Assembly: GCF_003018115.1 (NCBI RefSeq)
Contig: NZ_CP027457.1
Direction: 5' to 3' (one strand)
Length of the DNA: 64,000 nucleotides
Origin: Escherichia coli
GTDB taxonomy: Bacteria; Pseudomonadota; Gammaproteobacteria; Enterobacterales; Enterobacteriaceae
The position numbers and the translations under genes were made by a program. The stretch's first letter is position 1; every line of letters begins with the position of its first letter. This document shows, one piece after another, positions 13,523 to 21,600 of the stretch. Below the pieces are notes generated by a model. The model did no database searches. It had not been told where the DNA came from and was given only the letters and a program-made list of their open reading frames with translations.

Positions 13523-16082
13523 TCTTGTTATTGACCTGAGTCTGGATGCGGTCCGTTTCGATGAGCAGATGACCCGCGTAAGGCGTCATTTTTCAGGACT
13601 GGAGACTGACGCCAGAAAAACCGCCAGTGCTGTTGAGCAGGGGCTGAGCCGTCAGGCGCTGGCTGCACAAAAAGCCGGGATGTCCGTCGGGCAGTATAAA
13701 GCGGCCATGCGAACCCTGCCTGCACAGTTTACGGATATCGCCACGCAGCTTGCCGGTGGTCAGAATCCCTGGCTGATCCTGCTGCAACAGGGCGGTCAGG
13801 TGAAGGACTCCTTCGGCGGGATGATCCCCATGTTCAGGGGGCTCGCCGGTGCGATCACCCTGCCGATGGTCGGGGTCACCTCGCTGGCGGTGGCGACAGG
13901 TGCGCTGGTGTACGCCTGGTACCAGGGAGATTCCACGCTTTCAGCGTTTAATAAAACCCTGGTTCTTTCCGGTAATCAGTCCGGACTGACTGCCGATCGT
14001 ATGCTGACTCTCTCAAGAGCCGGGCAGGCAGCAGGGCTGACGTTTAACCAGGCGAGAGAGTCACTGGCAGCCCTGGTGAATGCCGGTGTGCGTGGTGGTG
14101 AACAGTTTGATGCCATCAACCAGAGTGTCGCGCGTTTTGCGTCTGCATCCGGTGTGGAGGTGGATAAAGTCGCTGAAGCCTTCGGGAAGCTGACCACTGA
14201 CCCGACGTCGGGACTGATGGCGATGGCGCGCCAGTTCCGTAACGTGACGGCAGAGCAGATTGCGTATGTTGCACAGCTGCAGCGTTCCGGAGACGAGGCC
14301 GGGGCATTGCAGGCGGCGAACGATATCGCCACGAAAGGCTTTGATGAGCAGACCCGTCGCCTGAAAGAAAACATGGGAACACTGGAGACCTGGGCGGATA
14401 AAACAGGGAAGGCATTCAAATCGATGTGGGATGCCATTCTGGATATCGGTCGTCCTGAATCCTCAGCGGATATGCTCGCCAGTGCGCAGAAGGCATTTGA
14501 TGAGGCGGATAAAAAATGGCAGTGGTACCAGAGCCGGAGCCAGCGCCGGGGAAAGACCTCCTCTTTTCGTGCGAACCTTCAGGGGGCATGGGATGACCGG
14601 GAAAATGCCCGTCTGGGTCTGGCAGCGGCCACGCTGCAGTCGGATATGGAAAAAGCCGGTGAACTGGCGGCAAGGGACCGGGCTGAGCGTGAGGCGTCAC
14701 AGCTGAAGTATACCGGAGAGGCGCAGAAGGCGTATGAGCGCCTGCAGACGCCGCTGGATAAATATACCGCCCGTCAGAAAGAGCTGAATAAGGCCCTGAA
14801 AGACGGAAAAATCCTGCAGGCGGATTACAACACGCTGATGGCGTCGGCGAAAAAGGATTATGAATCAACGCAGAAAAAACCGAAGTCGTCAGGTGTCAGA
14901 GTGTCAGCCGGGGAGCGTCAGGAAGACCGGGCGCATGCAGCCCTGCTGGCGCTTGAAACTGAGCTCCGGACGCTGGAGAAGCACAGCGGTGCGAATGAGA
15001 AAATCAGCCAGCAGCGCCGTGATTTATGGAAGGCGGAAAGTCAGTATGCGGTCCTGAAAGAGGCCGCCACGAAACGACAGTTATCCGGGCAGGAAAAATC
15101 CCTGCTGGCCCATGAGAAAGAGACGCTGGAGTACAAACGCCAGCTGGCTGAGCTGGGCGACAAGGTTGAATACCAGAAACGGCTGAATGAGCTGGCACAG
15201 CAGGCGGTGCGGTTTGAAGAGCAGCAGAGCGCGAAGCAGGCCGCCATCAGCGCAAAAGCCCGTGGTCTCACTGACCGTCAGGCGCAGCGGGAGTCTGAAG
15301 AGCAGCGTCTTCGTGACGTGTATGGCGATAATCCGCAGGCGCTGGCCCGGGTCACCGGGGCACTGAAACAGACATGGGCGGATGAAGACATGCTGCGCGG
15401 TGACTGGCTGGCCGGTCTGAAGTCCGGCTGGGGGGAGTGGACGGAAAGTGCGACGGACAGTTTTTCGCAGGTTAAAAGTGCTGCCACGCAGACCTTTGAC
15501 GGTATTGCACAGAATATGACGGCGATGCTGACCGGTGCAGAGGCAGACTGGCGGGGATTCACCCGTTCGGTGCTGTCCATGATGACAGAAATCCTGCTTA
15601 AACAGGCCATGGTGGGCATTGTCGGGCGTATCGGCAGCGCCATTGGTGGTGCTTTCGGTGGTGGGGCGTCTGCCTCCACGGGGACGGCCATTGAGGCTGC
15701 GGCGGCGAACTTCCATTTTGCGACCGGCGGATTTACGGGCACGGGCGGCAAATATGAGCCTGCGGGGATAGTTCACCGCGGGGAGTTTGTTTTCACGAAG
15801 GAGGCAACCAGCCGGATAGGCGTGGGGAATCTTTACCGTCTGATGCGCGGCTATGCGGAAGGGGGGTATGTGGGTGGTGCCGGAAGTCCGGCGCAGATGC
15901 GGCGGGCGGAAGGTATTAATTTTAATCAGAACAATCACGTGGTGATTCAGAACGACGGTATCAACGGACAGGCGGGGCCGCAGCTGATGAAGGCGGTGTA
16001 TGACATGGCCCGCAAGGGGGCGCAGGATGAGCTCCGGCTGCAGTTGCGTGATGGCGGTATGTTATCAGGGAGCGGGCGATGA
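13503..16082 (+). CDS. H: Tail tape measure protein H
   Basis: 859-aa product matches lambda gpH. Confidence 0.95.
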   Translation: MSQPVGDLVIDLSLDAVRFDEQMTRVRRHFSGLETDARKTASAVEQGLSRQALAAQKAGMSVGQYKAAMRTLPAQFTDIATQLAGGQNPWLILLQQGGQVKDSFGGMIPMFRGLAGAITLPMVGVTSLAVATGALVYAWYQGDSTLSAFNKTLVLSGNQSGLTADRMLTLSRAGQAAGLTFNQARESLAALVNAGVRGGEQFDAINQSVARFASASGVEVDKVAEAFGKLTTDPTSGLMAMARQFRNVTAEQIAYVAQLQRSGDEAGALQAANDIATKGFDEQTRRLKENMGTLETWADKTGKAFKSMWDAILDIGRPESSADMLASAQKAFDEADKKWQWYQSRSQRRGKTSSFRANLQGAWDDRENARLGLAAATLQSDMEKAGELAARDRAEREASQLKYTGEAQKAYERLQTPLDKYTARQKELNKALKDGKILQADYNTLMASAKKDYESTQKKPKSSGVRVSAGERQEDRAHAALLALETELRTLEKHSGANEKISQQRRDLWKAESQYAVLKEAATKRQLSGQEKSLLAHEKETLEYKRQLAELGDKVEYQKRLNELAQQAVRFEEQQSAKQAAISAKARGLTDRQAQRESEEQRLRDVYGDNPQALARVTGALKQTWADEDMLRGDWLAGLKSGWGEWTESATDSFSQVKSAATQTFDGIAQNMTAMLTGAEADWRGFTRSVLSMMTEILLKQAMVGIVGRIGSAIGGAFGGGASASTGTAIEAAAANFHFATGGFTGTGGKYEPAGIVHRGEFVFTKEATSRIGVGNLYRLMRGYAEGGYVGGAGSPAQMRRAEGINFNQNNHVVIQNDGINGQAGPQLMKAVYDMARKGAQDELRLQLRDGGMLSGSGR

Positions 16083-17116: not shown

Positions 17117-17860
17117 ATGACACAGACTGAATCAGCGATTCTGGCGCATGCCCGGCGGTGTGTGCCAGCGGAGTCGTGCGGCTTCGTGATAAGCACCCCG
17201 GAGGGCGAACGGTACCAGCCCTGCGTGAATATCTCCGCAGAGCCGGAGGCGTATTTTCGTATTGCGCCGGAAGACTGGCTGCAGGCACAGATGCAGGGGG
17301 AGATTGTGGCGCTGGTCCACAGTCATCCCGGTGGTCTGCCCTGGCTGAGCGAGGCGGACCGGCGGCTGCAGATAAAGAGTGCCCTGCCCTGGTGGCTGGT
17401 CTGCCGGGGTGAAATTCACCGGTTCCGCTGTGTGCCGCACCTGACCGGACGGCGCTTTGAACACGGTGTGACGGACTGTTACACCCTGTTCCGGGATGCA
17501 TACCATCTGGCGGGGATTGAGATGCCGGATTTTCATCGCGAGGATGACTGGTGGCGCAACGGTCAGAACCTGTACCTGGACAACCTGGCGGAAAACGGCT
17601 TTTGCCGGGTGTCTCCGTCCTGTGCACAGGCAGGCGATATTCTGCTGTGCTGCTTTGGTTCATCGGTGCCGAATCATGCCGCCATTTACTGTGGCAACGG
17701 TGAACTGCTTCACCATATACCTGAACAACTGAGTAAACGGGAGAGGTATTCTGAAAAATGGCAACGACGAACGCATTCTGTCTGGCGTCACCGCCACTGG
17801 TCCGCATCTGCCTTCACGGGGATTTACAACGATTTGGTCGCCGCATCAGTCTGTATGTGA
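17117..17860 (+). CDS. K: Tail tip assembly protein K (JAMM/MPN-like HSHPGG motif; NlpC/P60-like C-terminal region)
   Basis: Internal ATG of track ORF 16856..17860; product matches lambda gpK; true start uncertain (reference lambda annotation uses a shorter form). Confidence 0.75.
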   Translation: MTQTESAILAHARRCVPAESCGFVISTPEGERYQPCVNISAEPEAYFRIAPEDWLQAQMQGEIVALVHSHPGGLPWLSEADRRLQIKSALPWWLVCRGEIHRFRCVPHLTGRRFEHGVTDCYTLFRDAYHLAGIEMPDFHREDDWWRNGQNLYLDNLAENGFCRVSPSCAQAGDILLCCFGSSVPNHAAIYCGNGELLHHIPEQLSKRERYSEKWQRRTHSVWRHRHWSASAFTGIYNDLVAASVCM

Positions 17861-18438
17861 ACACGGCAGCGGAGGCCATCCGTGCCCTGTCGCTGCAGGT
17901 GCCGGGATTCCGCTGTCAGATGAACGAAGGCTGGTACCAGATACGTATTGCCGGTGAGGATACCGCGCCGGAGGTGGTGTATGCCCGTCTTCATGAACCG
18001 CTGAGCGGGAGGGCCGTGATTCATATTGTACCGAGGCTGGCAGGGGCCGGGGGAAATGGTGTTTTTCAGGTGGTGCTGGGGGCTGCAGCCATCGTGGGCT
18101 CTTTCTTCACCGCCGGTGCAACGATGGCGTTGTGGGGCGCAGCCCTGAGTGCCGGAGGGCTGACTGCCACCACGATGCTGTTCTCACTGGGTGCCAGCAT
18201 GATACTGGGTGGTGTGGCCCAGATGCTGGCCCCGAAGGCAAAGACGCCGGAATACAAAAGTACGGATAACGGTAAACAGAACACGTATTTTTCGTCACTG
18301 GACAACATGATTGCTCAGGGTAACCCGATGCCGGTGCCTTACGGTGAAATGCTGGTTGGTTCACGACGGATATCCCAGGACATCAGCACCCGTGATGAGG
18401 GCGGAGACGGGAAAGTGGTGGTTATCGGGCGGGGATAA
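17758..18438 (+). CDS. I: Tail tip assembly protein I
   Basis: Product matches lambda gpI; overlaps K 3' end as in lambda. Confidence 0.9.
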   Translation: MATTNAFCLASPPLVRICLHGDLQRFGRRISLYVNTAAEAIRALSLQVPGFRCQMNEGWYQIRIAGEDTAPEVVYARLHEPLSGRAVIHIVPRLAGAGGNGVFQVVLGAAAIVGSFFTAGATMALWGAALSAGGLTATTMLFSLGASMILGGVAQMLAPKAKTPEYKSTDNGKQNTYFSSLDNMIAQGNPMPVPYGEMLVGSRRISQDISTRDEGGDGKVVVIGRG

Positions 18439-18678
18439 AAATAAAAAAATCCCGCAGAGTTAGCGGAGCTGCGGGAGAGAACGATGAAGATTAACGTTAT
18501 GGAGTTATTTTTCAGGCATCAAAAATGTAACGCAGCGTCATTATTGCGGCTACAGGCAATTGCCGGAAATGTGAAGAGTTTCAGAAATTTTATTCCGTCA
18601 TGACACAGGCACCCTCCGGGGTGCCTGTTGTTTTCTGGCATAAACAGATTCAGACATCAGACAGGAGAGGGGGACAGA

Positions 18679-21600
18679 GTGGGTAAAGGGGGCGGCAAGG
18701 GGCACACACCGCGTGAGGCGAAGGACAATCTCAAATCCACGCAGATGATGAGCGTGATTGATGCCATTGGTGAGGGACCGGTGGAAGGTCCGGTGAAGGG
18801 ACTGCAGAGTATTCTGGTGAACAAAACCCCGCTGACGGACACGGACGGTAATCCCGTGATACACGGTGTGACCGCCGTCTGGCGTGCCGGGGAGCAGGAG
18901 CAGACACCACCTGAAGGCTTTGAGTCCTCCGGGGCGGAAACCGCACTGGGCGTGGAGGTGTCGAAGGCAAAGCCGGTGACGCGCACCATCACGTCAGCGA
19001 ACATTGACCGTCTGCGGGTCACCTTCGGGGTGCAGTCACTGGTGGAGACCACCTCAAAGGGTGACCGTAATCCCTCTTCTGTCCGGCTGCTGATTCAGCT
19101 TGAGCGTAATGGTAACTGGGTGACGGAGAAGGATGTCACCATTAACGGCAAGACCACCTCGCAGTACCTGACGTCGGTGATTCTGAATAATCTCCCTGAG
19201 CGCCCCTTTAACATCCGGGTGGTCAGGGTGACGGCGGACAGTACCACGGACCAGCTGCAGAACAGAACGCTGTGGTCGTCATACACCGAAATCATCGATG
19301 TGAAACAGTGCTACCCGAACACGGCCATTGTGGGGCTGCAGGTGGATGCGGAGCAGTTCGGTGGCCAGCAGATGGTGGTGAACTACCATATCCGCGGCCG
19401 CATCATTCAGGTGCCGTCAAACTATGACCCGGAAAAACGCACCTACAGCGGTATCTGGGACGGGAGTCTGAAACCGGCATACAGCAATAACCCGGCCTGG
19501 TGCCTGTGGGACATGCTGACTCACCCGCGCTACGGGATGGGAAAACGCCTGGGGGCCGCGGATGTGGACAAGTGGGCGCTGTATGCCATCGGGCAGTACT
19601 GCGACCAGACGGTCCCGGATGGTTTCGGGGGCACAGAGCCGCGGATGACCTTTAATGCGTACCTGTCACAGCAGCGTAAGGTGTGGGATGTCCTGGGGGA
19701 TTTCTGCTCGGCGATGCGCTGTATGCCGGTATGGAACGGTCAGACGCTGACGTTCGTTCAGGACCGTCCGTCGGATGTGGTGTGGCCGTACACGAACAGC
19801 GATGTGGTGGTGGATGATAACGGCGTGGGGTTCCGCTACAGCTTCAGTGCCCTGAAGGACCGGCACACGGCGGTGGAGGTGAATTACACCGACCCGCAGA
19901 ACGGCTGGCAGACTTCCACGGAACTGGTGGAAGACCCGGATGCCATCCTGCGCTACGGGCGCAACCTGCTGAAGATGGATGCGTTCGGCTGTACCAGCCG
20001 CGGTCAGGCCCACCGTGCCGGACTGTGGGTGATAAAGACAGAACTGCTGGAAACGCAGACGGTGGATTTCACGCTCGGGTCTCAGGGGCTGCGGCACACA
20101 CCCGGTGACATCATTGAAATCTGTGATAACGACTATGCCGGGACCCTGACCGGCGGACGCATCCTGTCCATCGATGCCGCCAGCCGCACACTGACGCTGG
20201 ACCGTGAGGTGACACTGCCGGAAGCAGGTACATCGACGGTGAACCTGATTAACGGCCGTGGTAAGCCGGTGCGCGTGGACATCACTGCACACCCCGCCCC
20301 TGACCGGATACAGGTCAGCGTCCTGCCTGATGGCGTGGCGACATACGGTGTGTGGGGACTCTCCCTGTCGTCACTGCGTCGTCGCCTGTTCCGCTGTGTT
20401 TCCATCCGGGAAAACACGGACGGCACCTTTGCCATCACGGCGGTGCAGCACGTACCGGAAAAAGAAGCCATTGTGGATAACGGGGCCCGCTTTGAGCCGA
20501 TGTCCGGCTCACTGAACAGCGTCATCCCGCCGGCAGTGCAGCACCTCACGGTGGAGGTGAGTGCCTCAGACGGCCAGTATCTGGCGCTGGCGAAATGGGA
20601 CACGCCGCGGGTGGTGAAGGGCGTGCGTTTCAGTCTGCGCCTGACCAGCGGAAACGGTGAAAACAGCCGCCTGGTGACCAGCGCCATCACGGCGGACACG
20701 GAGCACCGTTTCAGTGGCCTGCCTCTGGGGGAATACACCCTGACGGTCAGGGCGATAAACAGCTATGGCCAGCAGGGCGAACCTGCCACCACCACATTCC
20801 GGATTAATGCACCGGCGGCACCGGCCAGCATTGAACTGACGCCGGGCTATTTTCAGATAACGGTGGTCCCGCATCCTGCGGTGTATGACCCGACGGTACA
20901 GTATGAATTCTGGTTCTCAGAAAAACGCATCACGGACACGGCACAGGTGGAAACCTCAGCCCGTTATCTGGGTACCGACAGCCAGTGGAGCGTCTCCGGC
21001 CCGCACATTAAGCCGGGGAAGGATTTCTGGTTTTATGTGCGCAGCGTCAACCTGGTGGGGAAATCTGCGTTTGTGGAGGCCAGCGGGCAGGCCAGCAATG
21101 ATGGTGAAGGGTATCTGGAAATTTTCCGTGGGCTGATAGATGAGGCGCTGCTGGGGAAGGCACTGAAAGAGCGTATTGATGCGTCAGCCCTGCGTACTGA
21201 GGTCACGCAACTGGAAGAAGACATCCGCCAGCGGCTGGAGACGGATGTTGCGGAAGTGACCCGAAAAATAGGGGAGGCGGAAAACAGCCTCACGCAGCTG
21301 GTTGCGAAAAAGAATGAGGACCAGACGCTGGCCATCGCGCAGGTGAGTCAGCAGGTGGACCGGGTGAGCAGTGAAATCACACAGACAGTCAGCCAGAGCA
21401 CGGAGGAAAACGCCAGGCAGATAGCGCAGGTCCGCCAGTACGTGGATGACAAAGGGAGTGAAATCACCTCGACCACGGATAAAAAGCTGGAAGACCAGAG
21501 CGCGACCATACAGCAGATACAGCAGGTCCAGTCAGACACGAATGATGAGCTGGCAGCGCTGTACATGCTGAAGGTGCAGAAAACGAAAAACGGCATTCCG

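Follow-up and report, generated by a model that had tools for sequence, protein, structure and literature searches.

The extra sequence between the tail genes I and J in the window, by which we mean the whole stretch of 64,000 nucleotides of Escherichia coli DNA analysed here, very probably (we estimate a probability of about 0.88) holds an already published small RNA gene, pasB / EcOnc22-24, which lies on the minus strand, antisense to the tail genes. The finding is a rediscovery: a 2014 study had already detected the RNA in EHEC, and its name followed in 2021, from work on EPEC. The initial annotation of this DNA had suspected a regulatory or small-gene insertion between I and J. Expansion of a structured spacer by a small regulatory gene is indeed what we find, but the gene is not the plus-strand open reading frame (ORF) singled out at the time; what the spacer encodes is a non-coding RNA, read from the opposite strand. 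Equating EcOnc22-24 with PasB brings the EHEC and EPEC data sets together, and this equivalence, a CRP-like site upstream of the gene and the tandem arrays described below are modest, testable additions to what has been published.

The spacer belongs to a plus-strand lambdoid tail operon, which spans 13.5-23 kb of the window and comprises, according to the ORF list, H, M, L, K, I and J, followed by an outer-membrane-protein-like ORF. With I ending at 18438 and J starting at 18679, the gap of 240 bp (18439-18678) reported initially is borne out, and the roughly 60 bp given there for lambda also proves correct (the end of I at 15444 and the start of J at 15505 leave 60 bp); the spacer is about 180 bases longer in the window than in lambda. 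Both hairpins and the 39-codon ORF that had been described in 18439-18678 are present, and on each strand the spacer gives a more stable fold than its shuffles (z = -2.9 for both). Matching spacers are found in 147 phage records, mainly of Stx-converting phages (98.9% for VT1-Sakai). Among 5426 complete E. coli genomes, 801 have the spacer, the median number of copies being 3 in those that do. A spacer that is common and free of structure in relatives had been named as the observation that would speak against a regulatory insertion: common it is, but both hairpins are kept by compensatory changes. In the genome and phage records examined, nothing is annotated in the spacer besides I, J and a sporadic "hypothetical protein", and pasB is annotated in none of them, nor in Rfam 15. 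The value of the identification for annotation lies in this absence and in the occasional spurious small ORFs that are found in its place. Two such "hypothetical protein" ORFs have been deposited inside the I-J spacers of phage 1720a-02 (L001:1466-1618) and PhiR12_1 (L002:1558-1656); their frames and positions are unlike each other and unlike the 39-codon ORF of the window (ORF39), and they are probably gene-caller artefacts over the pasB locus. For comparison, viral contigs were searched with the N-terminus of J; the 80 I-J junctions assembled in this way contain 61 distinct spacers. The features discussed below are collected in Table 1.

Table 1. Features of the I-J spacer in the window, and comparative loci with expanded spacers
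Feature	Position	Strand	Basis or remark
Tail assembly gene I	17758-18438	+	Left border of spacer; ORF list and annotation of homologous records (tail assembly protein I)
pasB / EcOnc22-type sRNA, ~76 nt	~18518 to 18443	-	Homology, terminator, predicted -10
Hairpin 1, pasB intrinsic terminator	18443-18475	-	Terminator scan; conserved in variants
Candidate single-stranded seed GUUAAUCUUCAU	18484-18495	-	Conserved block in 52 aligned family members
ORF39 (MKINVMELFF...)	18484-18603	+	Judged not to be a gene
Predicted -10 hexamer TACATT (TAnnnT)	18524-18529	-	Predicted start ~18517-18518
Alternative -10-like hexamer AATAAT (TATAAT in E2348/69)	18540-18545	-	Alignments; conservation 0.84
CRP-like palindrome AAATGTGA-AGAGTT-TCAGAAAT	18567-18588 (core 18570-18585)	.	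Upstream of predicted pasB promoter, centre ~-60.5
Hairpin 2, terminator-like stem-loop in J leader	18605-18635 (stem-loop 18605-18628)	+	Terminator scan, covariation
J ribosome-binding site (GGAGAGGGGG, 18663-18672) and GTG 18679	18663-18681	+	Sequence, ORF frame, tblastn of J N-terminus against loci
Gene J	GTG start 18679, end 22374	+	ORF list
Tandem arrays, four units	L027 (594-1500), L021, L008, L011, L013-L015		
Tandem array, three units	L020		
Tandem arrays, two units	L012, L028, L033, L023, L031, L032		
sodC loci	L043, L045, L047, L048, L050, L058, L077	- (sodC)	I-J spacers 851-852 bp

The gene ends in an intrinsic terminator, hairpin 1, in which the stem CCCGCAG/CUGCGGG (18475-18469 with 18457-18451) encloses an 11-nt loop and is followed by A and U7 (18449-18443). 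Seen on the plus strand, cccgcag (18451-18457) pairs with ctgcggg (18469-18475) next to an A run (18443-18449). A hairpin with an A run on one side had been noted from the start; it is there, and the side on which the run lies makes it a minus-strand terminator, with its U tail read from the other strand. Hairpin and U run are kept in 38 of 38 distinct 3' ends, and the stem comes in three compensatory versions (CCCGCAG/CUGCGGG, CCCACAG/CUGUGGG and CUCCCGUAAUA/UAUUACGGGAG). These counts come from per-sequence folding, because RNAalifold gave no consensus structure for the 52 family members, the MAFFT alignment of which misregisters the three stem types. Since the U7 run sets it, the 3' end of pasB in the window is placed at 18443, 5 nt past the I stop codon, and the same arrangement is found in E2348/69 and Sakai.

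PasB (pathogenicity-associated sRNA B) has been described in prophage PP6 of EPEC E2348/69 (Pearl Mizrahi et al. 2021, PMC8550237; Zhu, Shabalina & Storz 2026, bioRxiv 10.64898/2026.05.13.724894), as an RNA of 83 nt on the minus strand of NC_011601 (1466343->1466261), between E2348C_1436 and E2348C_1437 (PMC8550237 Table S6). These two genes are I (end 1466255) and J (start 1466496), again with a spacer of 240 bp. The RNA was detected by RNA-seq, RIL-seq and Northern blot, needs Hfq for its stability and takes part in 37 RIL-seq interactions (PMC8550237). It shares with the window RNA its antisense position in a 240-bp I-J spacer, the terminator stem with U7, a conserved AUCUUCAU block beside the terminator, the upstream palindrome and hairpin 2. 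The PasB Northern probe, AATCCCGCAGTGATCGCGGAGCT, corresponds to hairpin 1 of the E2348/69 spacer and agrees with hairpin 1 of the window in 20 of its 23 bases. Over the RNA as a whole, 64 of 85 aligned positions are identical; a deletion in its 5' half makes the window RNA about 7 nt shorter, and its terminator loop differs as well.

The counterpart in EHEC is closer still. In O157:H7 Sakai, EcOnc22 (Sp15), EcOnc23 (Sp14) and EcOnc24 (Sp11) were reported as mutual homologues (Tree et al. 2014, PMC4104026 Table S2), and EcOnc22 as an RNA of ~85 nt that is destabilised in an hfq deletion (PMC4104026). Each of the three maps to an I-J spacer of Sakai and is antisense to the two tail genes. The Sp15 spacer is identical to that of the window at 238 of 240 positions; the RNA-coding stretch (18443-18518) is identical throughout, the two differing bases (18526 and 18531) lying outside the mature RNA, in or beside the predicted -10. 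The EcOnc coordinates of Tree et al. (2014) refer to an older Sakai sequence and need a shift of ~+128 for NC_002695.2. Rfam places AgvB1 at 1941920-1941981 of NC_002695.2, as against 1941783-1941835 in the paper, and STnc100 at 3486448-3486638, as against 3486349-3486411 for EcOnc06; the offset of ~128 bp holds at 1.94 and 3.49 Mb, flanking the EcOnc22 region on both sides. EcOnc RNAs mapped onto NC_002695.2 without this correction are misplaced by ~128 bp. After the shift, the Hfq-crosslinking peak of EcOnc22 corresponds to 18527->18467 of the window on the minus strand, where it covers the body of the RNA as far as the 5' arm of hairpin 1; nothing substantive distinguishes EcOnc22 from the window RNA. 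A location of the peak on hairpin 2, which results from taking the coordinates at face value, was dropped because the paper uses the older sequence.

The equivalence of PasB and EcOnc22-24 rests on this coordinate mapping, made here; it is not stated in Table S6 of PMC8550237, which gives EHEC homologues for PasA and PasD only, and the EcOnc names are absent from the survey of Zhu et al. (2026). By these comparisons, the window RNA is an EHEC-type sequence variant of pasB/EcOnc22, not the E2348/69 allele, and a length of ~80-85 nt with Hfq-dependent stability, known from E2348/69 and the identical Sakai locus, would be expected of it too. AgvB, AsxR and Esr41 were considered as its identity and ruled out by Rfam and by position. 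No Rfam family corresponds to it, either in an E-value search of 17500-19500 or in gathering-threshold searches of the whole window and the Sakai locus, which returned merely a chance snoRNA match (E = 0.12) and an unrelated core sRNA far downstream. AgvB and AsxR, encoded by convergent sRNA genes downstream of PR' (Tree et al. 2014), resemble pasB as short Hfq-binding sRNAs of Stx-type prophages, whereas pasB sits inside the tail operon and has no sequence or Rfam similarity to them.

In placing the 5' end of pasB in the window, we relied on the predicted -10 and on homology with E2348/69 PasB, the 5' end of which was mapped from read coverage. A scan of 17500-19500 for consensus Sigma-70 promoters found nothing, and the proposed promoter therefore rests on comparative conservation. 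Within the TAnnnT hexamer, T1, A2 and T6 are invariant in 65 unique modules, and in 63 of the 65 it lies 48.5 bp from the centre of the upstream palindrome. The mapped PasB 5' end in E2348/69 is 6 nt past the equivalent hexamer, a spacing that supports TAnnnT as the -10. If the alternative hexamer were used instead, the 5' end could extend to ~18533; this would give a primary transcript of ~91-98 nt (~91 nt in the window) and put the palindrome at -44.5, fitting no standard CRP class. The alternative hexamer is missing from the diverged module 2 of L027.

Within the module, conservation is highest in the half-sites of the palindrome (AAATGTGA-N6-TCAGA, 18567-18585), which have a mean identity of 0.99 among the 65 unique modules, compared with 0.82 for the central N6 and 0.91-0.96 for the terminator stems. 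Invariant half-sites around a variable centre are the pattern of a dimeric transcription-factor site. The palindrome agrees with the CRP consensus AAATGTGA-N6-TCACATTT at 9 of 10 core positions, the left half being perfect and the one departure being TCAGA for TCACA. It is the sole match in the 64-kb window, where 15 of 100 shuffles also have one, so that a single match is not significant alone, and it is present in every copy of the tandem arrays. Its centre lies ~-60.5 ± 1 from the predicted start, one base off the lac-type class I position. The class I CRP promoter lac P1, with its site at -61.5, likewise combines TGTGA-N6-TCAnA, invariant half-sites and a variable centre with a poor -35; its distance from the centre to the first -10 base is 49.5 bp, so that pasB is 1 bp shorter. 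From this likeness we infer a possible CRP dependence of pasB, and predict that the gene would be switched on by cAMP-CRP; if true, a prophage sRNA would be tied to carbon status. Spf is repressed by CRP. In the EPEC data, Spf is ~5-fold higher in DMEM, and PasB shows the opposite pattern, with higher levels in overnight static LB (PMC8550237). This pair of profiles agrees with catabolite control of pasB; stationary phase or growth phase, or low oxygen, explain it equally well.

We propose that pasB is a small "moron", a self-contained gene for an Hfq-dependent sRNA that would have enlarged the I-J spacer relative to lambda. Transcription would start near 18517-18518 from its own minus-strand promoter, with a TAnnnT -10 and a poor -35, and would end at hairpin 1 and its U7 run (18475-18443). 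Loading on Hfq would be through the U tail and terminator, and the CU-rich GUUAAUCUUCAU...UCUCU beside the terminator would pair in trans with Shine-Dalgarno and start-codon regions of target mRNAs. The GUUAAUCUUCAU block, immediately 5' of the terminator, is largely unpaired in the predicted fold; a seed just upstream of the terminator has also been proposed for PasB (Zhu et al. 2026, bioRxiv 10.64898/2026.05.13.724894), and PasB and EcOnc22 have been described as a trans-acting Hfq-bound sRNA (PMC8550237, PMC4104026). As with other lambdoid morons, the unit would be transcribed independently, from a promoter and to a terminator of its own, between conserved late genes: the 60-bp spacer of lambda has none of the pasB sequence, the terminator is present and the promoter is predicted, and the copy number ranges from 1 to 4.

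This range of copy numbers became apparent from the comparative set, in which the 80 loci are the closest J relatives, so that fractions among them are not population estimates: 15 of them have longer spacers made of tandem pasB-like units, ~220-230 bp apart, and 7 carry a minus-strand gene for a Cu,Zn superoxide dismutase (sodC; Pfam Sod_Cu, E = 3.9e-32) at the I-J site. Spacers of 421-489 bp contain two units, a spacer of 715 bp contains three and spacers of 907-920 bp contain four. A terminator, a TAnnnT hexamer and a palindrome recur in every unit, but the seed differs (for example AAUCUUCAU, AGUCAACAU and GACUAUUCGU). In the survey of Zhu et al. (2026), Pas genes were typically single per prophage region and the minimum pasB-pasB distance was 28 kb; the BLAST criteria used there probably missed the diverged tandem copies. 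Neither the tandem arrays nor the upstream palindrome that the units share seems to have been described before. At the sodC loci, the initial ~95 nt of the pasB unit, with the terminator, come after sodC, while the palindrome and hairpin 2 are absent, and PasB could there be a 3'-UTR-derived RNA. The I-J junction is thus a cargo site, occupied by one to four pasB-like modules or by a periplasmic superoxide dismutase gene. Going further, and tentatively, since we would sooner bet against this extension than for it, pasB may be a portable, catabolite-controlled sRNA cassette, consisting of CRP-like site, TAnnnT -10, seed and terminator, that has multiplied in tandem to up to four copies at the I-J junction. 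Some prophages would then carry expandable arrays of differently targeted sRNAs in their tail operon, perhaps acting also in cis on the late tail mRNA.

The occupation of the same site by sodC in 7 of the 80 loci, followed by the same ~95 nt and terminator, also brings up the reading that pasB is what was left when a larger moron on the minus strand, for example sodC, decayed: a 3' UTR and terminator without function of their own. We regard this as very unlikely: a conserved -10 and upstream palindrome of its own, retention of the module in 801 genomes, tandem duplicates with diversified seeds and, in two pathotypes, an abundant RNA bound to Hfq are features that debris should not have. Even less credible is the view that the gene in the spacer is ORF39, which would encode a real small protein, perhaps a type I toxin with the overlapping antisense RNA as its antitoxin. 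The ORF has a good-looking Shine-Dalgarno sequence, GGGAGA, 5 nt ahead of its ATG, its stop codon lies directly ahead of a plus-strand terminator-like hairpin, the antisense RNA overlaps its 5' end, and two phage records annotate small hypothetical ORFs in the spacer, albeit in other frames and at other positions. Yet its ATG is ACG in 14 of 43 distinct spacers of the 240-bp class, the open frame varies from 6 to 41 codons among variants (22 codons in E2348/69), and it is broken by stop codons and by indels that are not multiples of three. The peptide has no Pfam match and is not hydrophobic, whereas a type I system would have a conserved, usually hydrophobic toxin ORF under the antisense RNA. 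The 39-codon small gene considered possible in the initial annotation is accordingly not conserved and, judged from these variants, not a real gene. Its appearance has a ready source, because a seed that is anti-RBS and anti-AUG has a complement that mimics a ribosome-binding site and ATG: the ATG and first codons of ORF39 are the plus-strand complement of GUUAAUCUUCAU, and its "RBS plus ATG", GGGAGAgaacgATGAAGATTAAC, complements the conserved, mostly unpaired GUUAAUCUUCAUCGUUCUCUCCC beside the terminator. Pairing of the seed with ribosome-binding regions would in this way explain the RBS look of the opposite strand. A minus-strand ORF of 40 codons (18641-18519) was also rejected, its ATG not being conserved (many variants have GCGT for GCAT) and no Pfam match being found.

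It had further been suggested that the insertion affects J expression, and hairpin 2 is the element that bears on this. Its 10-bp stem (acaggcaccc/gggtgcctgt, with 7 G-C pairs) encloses the loop UCCG and is followed by the tail TGTTTTCTGG / UGUUUUC; contrary to the first description, it does not stand directly before the J ribosome-binding site, ending 34 nt short of the J Shine-Dalgarno sequence. In the alignment, 98.7% of its cells are paired, one pair changes from C-G to U-A in 10 of 30 distinct sequences, and eight cells are U-G or G-U wobbles, which would be A-C mismatches if read on the minus strand. As the wobbles pair on the plus strand only, hairpin 2 is selected in the plus-strand (I-J sense) RNA. 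It is found once per spacer, even where pasB units repeat, which shows that it is not part of the pasB module. With a G+C-rich stem and a U-rich run, it has the makings of an intrinsic terminator, and transcript release is predicted; no plus-strand sRNA ending at hairpin 2 was found in the searchable EPEC RIL-seq tables. The 60-bp spacer of lambda has a strong plus-strand stem-loop, AAACCGCC-UGCG-GGCGGUUU, with a U-rich run just before the J ribosome-binding site (L088:262-285, lambda 15461-15484; -21 kcal/mol, z = -3.0), which the simple terminator scan did not call despite its strong folding. Homology of the two spacers was considered and rejected (local alignment score of 16, as against 14.3 ± 2.1 for shuffles), and the lambda stem-loop is a positional analogue of hairpin 2 only, with no detectable sequence homology. 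We know of no described function for it.

One could therefore read the whole spacer as a cis-acting leader controlling J, in which hairpin 2 attenuates or terminates transcription and PasB triggers cleavage of the I-J mRNA, lowering J. A conserved plus-strand hairpin and U-rich run ~50 nt ahead of the J start, a stem-loop and U run at the equivalent place in lambda, and the necessary complementarity of PasB to ~76-90 nt of the late transcript would all suit this reading, which we nevertheless consider unlikely. As established for lambda, late transcription is Q-antiterminated and should ignore intrinsic terminators. The J ribosome-binding site, over 140 nt downstream of where PasB would pair, cannot be occluded by it, RIL-seq has PasB engaged with many trans partners, and nothing in this analysis, in PMC8550237 or in PMC4104026 connects any spacer element with J expression. 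We favour instead a trans-acting pasB, with hairpin 2 as an element independent of it that probably stops or stabilises transcripts made without Q antitermination.

Some further observations concern the surroundings of these elements. Between hairpin 2 and the J ribosome-binding site, the J leader of the window contains the heptamer TCAGACA twice in tandem (18649-18662); there are three copies in L009 and L010, and the block is absent from other variants. Besides pasB itself, six sites of the window (at 895, 9347, 10781, 10988, 31770 and 61738) match the complement of the PasB seed region, over 13 nt and with 2 mismatches apiece, making 7 in total as against 1.2 expected from shuffles. At 57760-57838 on the plus strand lies C0299, the E. 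coli core sRNA returned by the Rfam searches (111.9 bits), a sign that the DNA at this end of the window may belong to the bacterial chromosome and not to prophage.
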